Shown here: positions 2,759 through 33,105 of the stretch, piece after piece | Layout: every line of letters starts with the position of its first letter | How positions within the stretch are numbered: the first letter of the stretch is position 1 | Assembly (NCBI GenBank): GCA_041661265.1 | Contig: JBAZUT010000003.1 | Location: 15,191-79,190, forward strand | Reading direction: 5' to 3' | Origin: Minisyncoccota bacterium | Lineage (GTDB): Bacteria; Patescibacteriota; Minisyncoccia; JAHIHE01; JAGLIN01 | Length of the DNA: 64,000 bases | Program-made: the position numbers and the translations under genes | Notes under the pieces: generated by a model | Told to the model about the DNA's origin: nothing | The model's input: the letters and a program-made list of their open reading frames with translations, nothing else | Database searches by the model: none

Positions 2759-3175
2759 TTTAATTATATATTTTCCCTGACTGATTGTATTGCTGCGAAG
2801 AATGCAGTTGTTAGTGAAAATATAGCTGCACATTGAGATCGCGATGATTTCCCATAAAGAGATCGTTAAAAAATGGCGTCAATCAAGCCGGAGGTTTTGA
2901 GCGAAATGCTACTACAATTGCGTTTTGCGGCAGGAAATATCTTTCAAGAAAGAAGCTTTGAATTTTCAGAGCAACACCATGGATCCCGCAACAACCGAAT
3001 CAATCTCAATTGTTTTCAGCCGTCACTAATCAATGCGGGATATGAAGAATAAAAAAAATATCTTCATATCCCAATCTCTCCCTTGTTTTTTTAAAACAGA
3101 TTTCTGAACAGTGGGATCAGAAATTTGCGTTAAAAAGATCAAAACGCGGTAAATTAAAAAAAAGGAGGATAAAAA

Positions 3176-3322
3176 ATGGTGTATTTTGCACAGGACGAGT
3201 CCGTAATAAACGGAATAGTGGACTCAAAAAAGAGCGAAGCCGACAAAGACAAGTATGGATTGCGCGATGAGCAATTCGATGTCGCAAGAAACACTGGCAA
3301 GGCACAAGAGTTTGGGGAATAG
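3176..3322 (+). CDS. small hydrophilic protein (48 aa), paralog of the 3513 ORF
   Basis: Strong RBS AAGGAGG 7 nt upstream. N-terminus MVYFAQDES and a G-L-R-DEQ motif are shared with the 3513 ORF. Missing from the ORF track because it is under 60 aa. Confidence 0.4.
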   Translation: MVYFAQDESVINGIVDSKKSEADKDKYGLRDEQFDVARNTGKAQEFGE

Positions 3323-3512
3323 GACTAAATATTCCCCGCTCGTATTTTAGAAAGTTTGTTTTTGTCCGCATGAAGCGAGCAGAAATAAGCTCTATAAAAG
3401 ACGGGCTTAAACAGGATGATAAGCATGCCATCACGGCGCTTATACTTTCACGACTTGGAAAAAAAGCCAAGCACGGCAAGATCCTTGAAAATAATAGAAA
3501 AGAGGGAAAAAT

Positions 3513-3635
3513 ATGGTAAGTTTTGCAAAAGAAGGTTCAAAAATAACCGCGTTTGAAATAGAAAAAGAAAGCAGAGAGCGTTTTGGAAGAAAGGATGAGC
3601 AGAACATAAACGGTAATTTTGAAAGAGGAAATTAA
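3513..3635 (+). CDS. small hydrophilic protein (40 aa), paralog of the 3176 ORF
   Basis: RBS AGAGGGA. MVSFAKEGS...GRKDEQ aligns with the 3176 ORF. The ATG overlaps the stop of an upstream 49-aa ORF (3371-3519). Confidence 0.35.
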   Translation: MVSFAKEGSKITAFEIEKESRERFGRKDEQNINGNFERGN

Positions 3636-3655
3636 ATAAACCATATAAACAATAA

Positions 3656-3692
3656 GGGAAGCGGAAACTTGACCGCTTCCCGGCCATTTTTC
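3656..3692 (+). terminator. intrinsic terminator
   Basis: Perfect 9-bp stem gggaagcgg/ccgcttccc, then 'ggccatttttc'. Confidence 0.55.
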
Positions 3693-4050
3693 ATATGATC
3701 CCGTCCATGCTTATAAGGTTTACAGGCACTGACGGGCTTAAAATGAAAAGCCCTTACACAAATAAGAGAGGTTAAACAACTAAAAAAAGTTGGGTGCTAT
3801 CCGACCAACATTCGGAAAAAGTTCCTGCCTCTCTTATACCAATCATCTGCGTGATAATTGCGAACCTATCCCTGTTTTAATGATTTAAACCGGAGATAGG
3901 CTCACAAAGCCGAGAGTTGCGGGGCATGGCCAAACATGCCATGAAGAAGTGAAAGCACTTTATTTCTTAAGGGAATTATTTTCCGACCCCAGCTCTAAAC
4001 ACTGATAACATTCCGTTATCGAACAAAATAAACAGAAAGAGGAGATAAAC

Positions 4051-4215
4051 GTGGCAAATAAAGACAAAGCAAATGAAGACACCGGTAATACCGATGAGAG
4101 AAAAAATAAGATCGAACACAACAATGAGGTTCATGAGAAAATGAAAAATAAAGATGCCGCCGGAATAATCGGCGACAAGTTCGTGGATGATCACTATGTA
4201 CCGAGGTGCTATTGA
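4051..4215 (+). CDS. small K/N/E-rich protein (54 aa, GTG start)
   Basis: RBS AAGAGGAG 8 nt upstream of GTG. Followed by the terminator at 4215-4238 (gaggaca/tgtcctc plus T7). Confidence 0.35.
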   Translation: MANKDKANEDTGNTDERKNKIEHNNEVHEKMKNKDAAGIIGDKFVDDHYVPRCY

Positions 4216-7596: not shown

Positions 7597-7713
7597 GCCG
7601 AGGTGGCCGAGAAGGATAGGCGGACTTCGTCTTGCTGAAAAGCCAGACTATGTCCCGCCAAAGGCAGAAGACAGCAGATCTTCAAAACACAGGTTCGAAT
7701 CCTGTCCTTGGCT
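7597..7713 (+). other. tRNA-like element, non-canonical (117 nt). Canonical 3' half, Leu-like 5' half, about 45-nt insertion between them
   Basis: Exact T-arm acagg-TTCGAAT-cctgt (7689-7705). The 3' acceptor strand ccttggc pairs with gccgagg at 7597-7603, allowing one G.U. 'tg' (U8, G9) and a D-arm gcc-gagaaGGata-ggc follow, like tRNA-Leu 'GCCGAGGTGG'. A stem-loop gaaga-cagcaga-tcttc (7667-7683) sits five nt before the T-arm. Confidence 0.35.
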
Positions 7714-30461: not shown

Positions 30462-32204
30462 ATGAACGAGAAAAAAACAAAAGTGACCAAAATCAGGAAA
30501 CGAGACGGCAGGGTTGTCAGGTTTGATAAGGCAAAGATCACAAGTGCGATACATAAAGCGCTGACTGCTACGGGCGAAGGCGGAAAGAGGAATGCGCAGG
30601 AACTGGCAAAAAAGATCGAACATGAAGTGAATAAGCGTTTCTATGTTCGGAACGGCGGCGGAAAATTCAAGGCCGAAATTCCGACCGTTGAAGAAATGCA
30701 GGATATCGTCGAGGATTATTTGATCCGCGAAAATTATTTGGATACTGTAAAGGCTTACATTATATACAGAGAACAGCACAGATTGATACGTGAAAATCAT
30801 GATGTTCTGAAAAAATCCATTGATCTCGTTGATGATTACTTGAGCGAAGCTGACTGGCAAGTCAAAGAGAATAGTAATATGTCATATTCATTGCAGGGAT
30901 TGAACAATTATATTTCCAATGTAATTACTTCGAAGTATTGGCTCGAGAAGATCTATCCGCCGGAAATAAGAGAGGCGTATGTGAGTGGAGATTTTCATAT
31001 CCATGATCTCGGACTTTTGTCCGTGTATTGCTGCGGATGGGACCTGAAAGACCTCCTGACGAGGGGTTTTGGAGGCGTAAAGGGCAAAATTGACAGCAAG
31101 CCGCCCAAGCATTTCAGAAGCGCATTGGGGCAGGTTGTGAATTTTTTCTATACACTTCAGGGAGAAGCTGCGGGAGCGCAGGCTTTCTCGAATTTCGATA
31201 CTCTTTTGGCACCATATATCAAATACGATCAGCTGACATACAGGGATGTGAAACAGGCAATGCAGGAATTTGTCTATAACATGAATGTTCCGACCAGAGT
31301 TGGTTTCCAGACGCCTTTTACGAATATAACAATGGATCTGAAGGCGCCTTCAAATCTTGCGGATGAACCTGTGATCATCGGCGGAGTCATACAAAAGGAG
31401 CAATATAAGGACTTTTCAAACGAGATAAGCCTCATAAACAAGGCATTTGCAGAAGTGATGTATGAAGGCGACGCTTCGGGACGGGTCTTTACGTTTCCGA
31501 TCCCAACTTATAATATTACGAAGGATTTTGACTGGGATGACCCTAATCTTGAACCGATCTGGGAAATGACCGCTAAGTATGGAATTCCTTATTTCGCGAA
31601 CTATGTTAACAGCGACATGAAGCCTGAGGATGCGAGATCAATGTGCTGCAGACTAAGGCTTGATACGAGAGAACTTTATAAAAGAGGCGGAGGGCTTTTC
31701 GGAGCTCATCCTCTTACGGGTTCCATCGGAGTTGTCACCATCAACTTGCCAAGATTGGGATATTTGTCGAAAAATAAGGCCGATTTCTTCGTCCGGCTGG
31801 AAAAAATGATGGATCTGGCCAAAGAAAGTCTTGAAATCAAGAGGAAGACGCTTGAAAATTTCACGGAGAAAGGATTGTATCCCTACTCGAAATATTATCT
31901 GTCGAATATTAAACTTCAAAGGGGCGAATTCTGGGGAAATCATTTCTCAACTATCGGAATAATAGGAATGAATGAAGCACTGTTGAACTTTATGGGAAAA
32001 AAGTCGGGCATAATCACTGAAAAGGGAAATAAATTTGCCGAGGAAGTGCTCATGTTTATGAGGGATAAAATGGTTAAATATCAGGAAGAAACAGGTAATT
32101 TATATAATCTCGAAGCGACTCCGGGAGAAGGAACATCTTACAGGCTTGCCAAGAAAGACGTGGAGAGATACCCGAATATAATAACCGCAGTAGTCGAATA
32201 TTAA
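30462..32204 (+). CDS. nrdD: anaerobic ribonucleoside-triphosphate reductase NrdD, apparently missing the C-terminal glycyl-radical domain (possible pseudogene or truncation)
   Basis: ATP-cone N-terminus plus an NrdD core ending at '...LYNLEATPGEGTSYRLAKKDVERYPNIITAVVEY*'. No Zn-ribbon or RVCGY-type Gly-radical motif in any downstream frame. A 175-nt non-coding gap precedes nrdG. Confidence 0.7.
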   Translation: MNEKKTKVTKIRKRDGRVVRFDKAKITSAIHKALTATGEGGKRNAQELAKKIEHEVNKRFYVRNGGGKFKAEIPTVEEMQDIVEDYLIRENYLDTVKAYIIYREQHRLIRENHDVLKKSIDLVDDYLSEADWQVKENSNMSYSLQGLNNYISNVITSKYWLEKIYPPEIREAYVSGDFHIHDLGLLSVYCCGWDLKDLLTRGFGGVKGKIDSKPPKHFRSALGQVVNFFYTLQGEAAGAQAFSNFDTLLAPYIKYDQLTYRDVKQAMQEFVYNMNVPTRVGFQTPFTNITMDLKAPSNLADEPVIIGGVIQKEQYKDFSNEISLINKAFAEVMYEGDASGRVFTFPIPTYNITKDFDWDDPNLEPIWEMTAKYGIPYFANYVNSDMKPEDARSMCCRLRLDTRELYKRGGGLFGAHPLTGSIGVVTINLPRLGYLSKNKADFFVRLEKMMDLAKESLEIKRKTLENFTEKGLYPYSKYYLSNIKLQRGEFWGNHFSTIGIIGMNEALLNFMGKKSGIITEKGNKFAEEVLMFMRDKMVKYQEETGNLYNLEATPGEGTSYRLAKKDVERYPNIITAVVEY

Positions 32205-32379
32205 TCCAAATCAATGGGATTTCTGTTTCAAATGGTAGCATATTCAAATGCTGTACAAAAAAGCATCTTATGATGTTTTTTTGTTTTGCCGGCAGCGGAG
32301 GCATAAAATTGAACAAAAATGATTATAGTGCTATATTGTTAACAGTGGTAAACGAATTTAACCGGGAAACGAATATAAC

Positions 32380-33105
32380 ATGATCATAGGCGGAATGCAA
32401 AAATTTACCCTGCTTGATTATCCGGGCAAAATATCGGCAATTGTTTTTACGAAAGGCTGCAATTTGAGGTGCCCTTATTGCCATAATCCCGAAATAGTCG
32501 ATCCCAAAAAGATAGATTATGAAAATAATATAAGCGAACAAGACGTTATTAAGTTCCTCGAAACAAGAAAGGGTGATCTTGACGGGGTTTGCATAACGGG
32601 AGGGGAGCCTACCCTGCAGATAGGATTAAGCGGTTTCATCAGGAAAATAAAAGATATGGGTTTTTTGGTCAAGCTCGATACGAATGCGACTCAGTTGGGA
32701 ACCGTCAAGAATCTGGTAAAGGACGACATTGTCGACTATTGGGCGGTGGATATAAAAACGGTACCGAAAAAATATATAATTCTGGGCGGCGGCGATGGCG
32801 TTGTAAAAAATATTGAAAAAAGCCTGGGTCTGATGATCAATAGCGGCAAAAAACTTGAACTCAGGACAACGGTTGTCAGGGGGCTGGTGAATGAGGGTGA
32901 TATAGATGTAATGATGGCGTGGCTGAATGGCATTAATAAGGAGATACTCAAAAAGATAGACAGATATTCACTCCAGGGATTCAGGCCGGAGAAGACTCTG
33001 CTTGCCGGATATGCAGCAGTCGTGCCCTATCCCAGGGAAATGCTTGAAATAATGGCTGAAAAAATAAAGCCATTTTGCAGGAATGTAATAATTATGTCTG
33101 ATTAA
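32380..33105 (+). CDS. nrdG: anaerobic RNR activating radical-SAM protein
   Basis: 'CNLRCPYCHN' radical-SAM cluster motif with a 'DGVCITGGEP' glycine-rich SAM motif. Confidence 0.8.
   Translation: MIIGGMQKFTLLDYPGKISAIVFTKGCNLRCPYCHNPEIVDPKKIDYENNISEQDVIKFLETRKGDLDGVCITGGEPTLQIGLSGFIRKIKDMGFLVKLDTNATQLGTVKNLVKDDIVDYWAVDIKTVPKKYIILGGGDGVVKNIEKSLGLMINSGKKLELRTTVVRGLVNEGDIDVMMAWLNGINKEILKKIDRYSLQGFRPEKTLLAGYAAVVPYPREMLEIMAEKIKPFCRNVIIMSD

Follow-up and report, generated by a model that had tools for sequence, protein, structure and literature searches.

The stretch of DNA analysed here, a window of 64,000 nucleotides (nt) from contig JBAZUT010000003.1 of a Minisyncoccota bacterium, carries an open reading frame (ORF) for NrdD, the class III ribonucleotide reductase (RNR), that ends well before the point where such enzymes have their zinc site and their radical glycine. 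This ORF, here called nrdD-N (30462..32204, plus strand), starts with ATG, encodes 580 amino acids (aa) and closes with a TAA stop codon, the C-terminal end of the protein reading '...LAKKDVERYPNIITAVVEY'. An earlier reading, made from the sequence alone, had given 32379 as its end, which is the end of the gap that follows the gene. The same sequence-only reading recognised an ATP-cone and a class III RNR core, and with this the profile matches agree. Pfam places the ATP-cone allosteric domain at aa 10-107 (30489..30782, plus strand; PF03477, E=2.7e-20), where it aligns with the ATP-cone of P. copri NrdD (PDB 8P23), and the core at aa 136-575 (30867..32186, plus strand; PF13597, E=2.6e-148), an alpha/beta barrel minus its last part. 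The threshold for the class III NrdD family is passed with TIGR02487 (444.8 bits, cutoff 326.35), and NCBIfam NF006126 is matched with 885 bits (cutoff 548). Only positions 1-435 of the 562 in the NRDD profile are matched, so that about 127 profile positions are absent. Within the core lies 'SMCCRL' (aa 393-398; 31638..31655, plus strand), a conserved Cys loop region that was read from the sequence and is given its function by homology. Its positions are invariant across the full-length relatives (columns M399, C400, C401, R402 and L403 of alignment A2), and it aligns to 'TMGCRTR', residues 417-423 of P. copri NrdD, which adjoin the radical cysteine of that enzyme, Cys416 (PMC11226230). By analogy this loop should take the radical from a glycyl residue. 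The protein ends with the tail 'VVEY' and the TAA stop (32190..32204, plus strand), directly after the conserved '...YPNIITA', and this is the proposed fission point.

In comparison with full-length relatives of 699-724 aa, the protein stops about 120-145 aa short, ahead of the Zn-ribbon and the glycyl-radical motif, which bears out the shortfall that had been noticed from the sequence. Neither a Cys4 Zn-ribbon nor, in a six-frame search with regular expressions, the glycyl-radical motif RVxGY in an NrdD context is present on the nrdD-N polypeptide or in any frame of the window, and the best tblastn match of three NrdD C-termini within the 64 kb had E=0.6. The non-coding spacer between nrdD-N and nrdG (32205..32379, 175 nt) has NrdD motifs in none of its three frames, a point on which the earlier reading, the regular expressions and tblastn concur, and neither a hidden exon nor an intron half was found in it. 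The spacer is not conserved among relatives, where its length varies between 42 and about 180 nt. That of the window holds one promoter-like site (32309-32337), no more than expected by chance, and when the locus was scanned for promoters and terminators, neither was more frequent than in shuffled controls. The spacer is followed by nrdG (32380..33105, plus strand), which encodes a radical S-adenosylmethionine activase of 241 aa with the Pfam domains Radical_SAM and Fer4_12. This gene had been described as intact, and so it is: it scores 185 bits with TIGR02495, NrdG2 (cutoff 131), and the CxxxCxxC motif is present. The order nrdD-N, nrdG is kept in all relatives inspected. The genes flanking the locus encode FtsA, FtsZ, DUF167 and ComEC. 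These neighbours, and the fact that all named relatives are metagenome-assembled genomes of Patescibacteria, place the organism in the candidate phyla radiation. None of the large ORFs of the window encodes an alternative RNR.

Short nrdD genes of this kind are widespread among relatives. The comparison set consisted of the 120 closest protein clusters (clusters at 90% identity), derived from Patescibacteria assemblies in JGI, ENA, Logan and NCBI, and 87 of these 120 (69-100% identical to the window protein) are without RVVGY and end just past 'IITA'. The main clade of short forms (78-100% identity, 577-582 aa) stops 1-8 residues past '...YP(D/N)IITA', and a sister clade (about 70% identity, about 590-610 aa) stops 10-40 residues past IITA. 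The tails of 1-8 residues are variable (AV, AI, VVEY, LVEA, TSEK, TMKT and others). NrdD homologs of the same length in relatives, which the sequence-only reading had named as a finding that would speak against a broken gene, thus turned out to be common. Unsplit enzymes are found nearby as well: the full-length relatives P0073, P0096 and P0098 (699-724 aa, 68-75% identical) continue past IITA with a short linker and then 'PYYTNSxQLPV...KYTGGTV.H...CPxHGY...CPKC...CEVYSRVVGYLRPVQQW'.

Two variations on the short form were observed. The sister-clade proteins P0074-P0088 (about 601-614 aa) share a longer, semi-conserved tail, '...EKADLVV.LVN.E.QKQAVCA', which by analogy might be an interaction tail like those of Aeh1 NrdA. 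Five other proteins (P0036, P0044, P0057, P0061 and P0066; 899-904 aa) consist of a short NrdD-N with an insertion of about 320 aa at VGFQ|TPFTN, which starts with C[IV]SEDTEIL, contains a LAGLIDADG-like 'LIAWIVAEGS' and ends at GN|T. Pfam splits its NRDD match at the insertion and calls no intein domain there, so that the element appears intein-like by its motifs only.

A search with the C-terminal segment of the full-length proteins yielded many stand-alone proteins of 130-160 aa, here called nrdD-C. Each begins at an ATG of its own. A Lys-rich leader, variable and 4-25 residues long, is followed by the C-terminal module, in which YTNS, the four Zn cysteines (Cys4) and RVVGY are all invariant among the relatives aligned (alignment A1). 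These features, found in relatives and not in the window, match those of a small radical-glycine protein homologous to the C-terminus of glycyl radical enzymes (GREs). The peptide GERLPSGKEAK is specific to the clade, and a degenerate DNA pattern derived from it, scanned against JGI and ENA metagenomes, recovered 19 loci; in all 17 of the loci with a complete ORF an in-frame stop lies a few codons upstream of the ATG of nrdD-C, and an extended -10-like element, TGTATAAT, is present about 90-100 nt upstream in several lineages. The chromosomal context is kept, on contigs of up to 98 kb, as a peptide-chain release factor gene, nrdD-C, ftsE and ftsX, and neither nrdD-N nor nrdG is found nearby. 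None of the 19 loci lies on the contig of the window, and there is no synteny between the window and the neighbourhood of nrdD-C. The best explanation of these sequence features is that nrdD-C is independently transcribed and translated from a distant locus. The ratio of nonsynonymous to synonymous substitution rates (dN/dS) of nrdD-C is 0.05-0.11, from unsaturated dS only. Two broader searches are to be read with their resolution in mind: the search with P0147 at 50% clustering merges stand-alone pieces with full-length proteins and fragments and gives little information on the number of independent short lineages, and in a scan of a genome collection with the C-piece alignment the matches listed were mostly full-length NrdDs, L012 being the only stand-alone one among them.

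Some nrdD-C loci have peculiarities of their own. Contig Ga0369713_1000167 (L121) carries two tandem copies (3001-3465 and 3590-4054; MBW6440427.1 and MBW6440428.1) with 100% nucleotide identity that extends through about 100 nt upstream; either the gene was duplicated very recently or the assembly is at fault. At L136 9365-10000, with equivalents in L137-L140, an unusually long non-coding stretch of about 640 nt runs, in one lineage, from the release-factor gene to nrdD-C, in which Rfam at the gathering threshold finds nothing. Downstream of ftsX in L136 (19891-20018, plus strand) lies a LOOT RNA (RF03000, 74 bits), adjoining a block that resembles an integrated element, with serine recombinase, primase-like and AAA_25 genes.

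The two pieces are complementary to the residue range. On NF006126 (684 positions) the N-piece covers positions 2-551 and the C-piece 547-683; on P. copri NrdD (8P23) the N-piece reaches to about residue 600 and the C-piece covers 609-735; and on T. maritima NrdD (4COI) the core of the N-piece aligns to 99-510 and the C-piece to 516-644. In P. copri NrdD the core barrel comprises residues 123-671 and the glycyl radical domain 676-739 (PMC11226230); nrdD-C therefore comprises the complete radical domain and, in addition, about 60 residues of the barrel, in segments that correspond to 609-671 of the P. copri enzyme. An AlphaFold2 model of the nearest unsplit relative, P0073 (mean predicted local distance difference test score, pLDDT, 70; predicted template modelling score 0.68), puts the break site in a coil (residues 575-606); pLDDT is lower than 50 at 584-589 and 600-607. 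For the equivalent of the C-piece the model predicts two strands, several helices, Zn hairpins and the Gly loop. Since the linker at the break point is hypervariable in length across unsplit NrdDs, it is a natural place for fission.

The pieces also occur together. The N-piece P0058 (MBW6440516.1, contig Ga0369713_1000244) and the C-piece P0291 (MBW6440427.1/428.1, K0B03_00115, contig Ga0369713_1000167) originate from a single JGI sample, are both assigned to 'Patescibacteria group bacterium' and have NCBI accessions that are 89 apart; the proximity of the accessions and the common sample point to a single metagenome-assembled genome (MAG). An initial matching of the NCBI accessions of ten proteins gave no pair, and this one emerged via cluster members. 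In addition, P0059 (N-piece) and P0138 (C-piece) are found together in all three of the ENA samples ERZ23498471, ERZ23498480 and ERZ23498510, both with a G+C content of 32-33%. In relatives, an intact stand-alone C-piece that is the exact complement of the N-piece is thus present in the same genome.

Very probably, then, the nrdD of the window is the large piece of a class III RNR that was split in an ancestor of a clade of Paceibacteria, ultra-small bacteria within the Patescibacteria or candidate phyla radiation (CPR). In such an enzyme NrdD-N, with a predicted size of about 66 kDa, would contribute the ATP-cone, the Cys loop and the greater part of the barrel. The last two strands of the barrel and the helices that go with them would come from NrdD-C, about 17 kDa, along with the Zn-ribbon (Cys4) and the glycyl-radical loop (RVVGY). 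The two chains would come together without a covalent bond, presumably as (N.C)2, to form a working catalytic unit. NrdG would put the radical onto the glycine of the small piece, and from there, just as in an unsplit NrdD, it would move on to the Cys loop of NrdD-N. There is precedent for the elements of this scheme: the glycyl radical domain of NrdD is a mobile, quasi-rigid module (PMC11226230), and NrdA-a and NrdA-b of Aeromonas phage Aeh1 form an active RNR of two polypeptides, whose tails at the break point are needed for assembly (PMC3045599).

Several points weigh against this interpretation. We infer assembly, activation by NrdG and activity of the two-piece enzyme from sequence comparison, and the P0073 model is of moderate confidence only. 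Co-occurrence in the same genome comes from two lineages, one MAG and one pair in three samples. The organism's own nrdD-C was not found: it is absent from the 64-kb window, and if it exists it lies outside, and the C-pieces P0143, P0285, P0283, P0282 and P0294 led to sister samples and not to those of the window (ERZ27249449/SRR6484324). Neither an NrdR-box nor another upstream motif common to nrdD-N and nrdD-C was found.

Another explanation holds that NrdD-N works without a partner, as a regulatory nucleotide-binding protein or with another source of the radical, and that the C-pieces are spares for full-length NrdDs. The partnership of the two pieces is indeed deduced from sequence, and stand-alone radical domains that serve a full-length GRE exist: GrcA (YfiD) of E. 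coli, and Y06I of phage T4, are small homologs of a GRE C-terminus with a radical glycine, as nrdD-C is, and GrcA is a spare part for full-length pyruvate formate-lyase (PFL) after cleavage by oxygen (PMC8683613). However, NrdD-N has kept its Cys loop, and it is always followed by nrdG, the only known substrate of which is the glycine that NrdD-N is missing. The C-pieces moreover contain barrel elements (YTNS and two strands) that duplicate those of a full-length enzyme, so that simple docking is not possible, and the N- and C-pieces tile a single hidden Markov model. We therefore consider a partnerless NrdD-N very unlikely. The earlier suggestion that the radical domain is supplied in trans, in the manner of GrcA, is supported in substance, as a stand-alone gene for the NrdD C-terminus and the short form are found within one genome, and the analogy is right as far as a stand-alone radical protein is concerned. 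It fails for the role of a spare copy for a full-length enzyme: NrdD-N never has a radical domain of its own (it is truncated in 87 clusters), so that the small piece is the only copy of an obligatory part. In contrast to GrcA it is also larger, with a Zn-ribbon and about 60 extra residues of the catalytic barrel, and its parent enzyme is an RNR and not PFL.

Alternatively, the two pieces could be joined covalently, by a split intein or a trans-splicing group I or II intron, to yield a full-length NrdD. Inteins and introns are well known to settle in RNR genes (PMC3653736, PMC2988022), and some relatives have the intein-like insertion elsewhere in nrdD-N. However, the tails of the N-pieces are 1-8 aa long and variable, without a conserved initial Cys or Ser, whereas an N-intein needs at least about 25 aa; the Lys-rich, variable leaders of the C-pieces lack an HN[CST] junction before (P/H)(F/Y)YTNS; and nrdD-C has its own start codon, preceded by stops, and a promoter-like element. 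The spacer after nrdD-N, unconserved and as short as 42 nt, leaves the same impression, and Rfam at the gathering threshold shows no intron near either gene. When intron halves and riboswitches near either piece were looked for with Rfam, the only matches were transfer RNAs (tRNAs) and, elsewhere, the LOOT RNA. Because signatures of inteins and introns are absent, non-covalent assembly is most likely, and the chance of covalent joining appears very small indeed.

The sequence-only reading, which named three options and chose none, had also considered that the 3' end of nrdD was deleted, leaving a pseudogene. The remnant would then be decaying, and the organism would use another RNR or salvaged deoxynucleotides. 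CPR bacteria have reduced genomes from which pathways are often lost, the ORF of the window is without the essential Gly and Zn motifs, and no C-piece is at hand for this exact organism, all of which would fit a pseudogene. Against this, the 87 clusters have intact frames with the same endpoint down to 69% identity, dN/dS of the short nrdD-N among relatives is 0.03-0.05 (unsaturated dS only), the adjacent nrdG is conserved, and the short gene hosts the intein-like insertion in some lineages. A matching C-piece occurs in the same MAG of a relative, and the large ORFs of the window supply no alternative RNR. Since homologs of the same length are common in relatives and under purifying selection, the pseudogene explanation is refuted for practical purposes and must be rated as extremely improbable. 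An assembly artefact, the remaining option of that reading, would mean that an ordinary nrdD of about 700 aa had been shortened by a mis-join or a frameshift, and apart from the unusual length nothing can be cited for it. Its chance is negligible: across 13-22 kb that include the locus, assemblies made from different runs in ENA (MEGAHIT) and Logan agree with the window at 100% identity, dozens of independent assemblies of relatives from JGI, NCBI, ENA and Logan share the stop position, and the three downstream frames are without NrdD sequence. The short nrdD is neither a pseudogene nor an artefact; its truncation is conserved and under purifying selection.

Copies of nrdD-C are also present on phage contigs. 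One of them, P0283, shares 85-89% identity with C-pieces from chromosomes. Its contig in IMG/VR is 49 kb long (IMGVR_UViG_3300035208_000971; L141 10001-10459, the same DNA as L132-L134), and the genes around it encode NinB, NinG, HNH endonucleases, a DnaB-like helicase and a repair exonuclease. A second one (L142 6912-7337) is on a 39-kb contig, IMGVR_UViG_3300033145_000694, together with genes for a tape-measure protein and an endolysin-like peptidase. In the approximately 17-20 kb examined of each contig neither nrdD-N nor nrdG was found. Phage contigs with only nrdD-C make sense only if the C-piece functions in trans, and they are most easily explained by its working with the large piece of the host. 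The phage gene would then be an auxiliary gene consisting of a single enzyme fragment, with a parallel in Y06I of phage T4, a GrcA homolog (PMC8683613). One may speculate further that the radical module is an exchangeable, consumable subunit, which is replaced after cleavage by O2 or loss of the radical without remaking NrdD-N, and that phages bring their own nrdD-C to boost or re-arm the host RNR; this is a tentative idea, and we are inclined to doubt it. A different phage nrdD was seen on a 188-kb contig with a G+C content of 55% (L143 8627-10282; IMGVR_UViG_3300029705_000023). Its reading frame breaks off within the Zn-ribbon region ('...HETCPYDT*'), nrdG follows about 4.6 kb further downstream, and no RVVGY continuation was found in the 20 kb examined. 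By analogy with other phages, an intron or an endonuclease gene may interrupt this nrdD.

In GREs, to our knowledge, the radical glycine is located on the same chain as the active site. This holds for the canonical NrdD/NrdG systems of E. coli, phage T4, T. maritima and P. copri (1H7A, 4COI, 8P23), with which the present system shares the domain order (ATP-cone, barrel with Cys loop, Zn-ribbon, RVxGY) and the activase, and whose family model NF006126 is spanned end to end by the two pieces jointly. The difference is that here the chain is broken past '...IITA' and the last approximately 130 residues come from a separate locus, which leaves the Zn-ribbon and the Gly motif on the other polypeptide. 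RNR genes in pieces are otherwise known from phages. In Aeh1 the catalytic subunit is likewise in two pieces with short novel tails (PMC3045599), but it is a class Ia enzyme and not class III, and the position of the break differs. In Aeh1, as in the split nrdD genes of T4, Lactococcus phage 949 and phiAS4 (PMC3653736), the pieces are adjacent, with a homing endonuclease or intron between them. In contrast, the pieces described here are at unlinked loci of cellular genomes, nrdD-N being directly followed by nrdG and nrdD-C lying on other contigs, with no mobile element in between and with conservation throughout the clade. In the literature searched, split nrdD was found only as adjacent phage gene pieces. 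No account of a split NrdD dispersed over a cellular genome came to light, and a natively split class III RNR is not mentioned there, including in a 2026 review (PMC13450708).

If the tentative idea of an exchangeable radical module were correct, this would be the first natively two-subunit GRE with a radical subunit that is interchangeable between host and phage. A two-piece NrdD would show obligate in-trans delivery of a radical domain to an RNR, would allow activation by NrdG, with the radical domain swung out, to be separated from catalysis, and would be the RNR counterpart of repair by GrcA in organisms living near oxic/anoxic boundaries. The phage copies would reveal a new kind of auxiliary gene, a fragment that works only with the complementary fragment of the host. 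For metabolic reconstruction there is a practical side to this. The large piece is annotated as 'ribonucleoside triphosphate reductase' and the small one as 'hypothetical protein' (for example KAI67_00775 and K0B03_00115), and because of these labels the synthesis of deoxynucleoside triphosphates in CPR bacteria may be misjudged.

Elsewhere in the window, an Rfam tRNA match (43.7 bits, full model 1-71) at 7597-7713 on the plus strand spans 117 nt. ARAGORN calls no tRNA at this position; a possible reading is a tRNA that contains about 45 nt of inserted or intron sequence.

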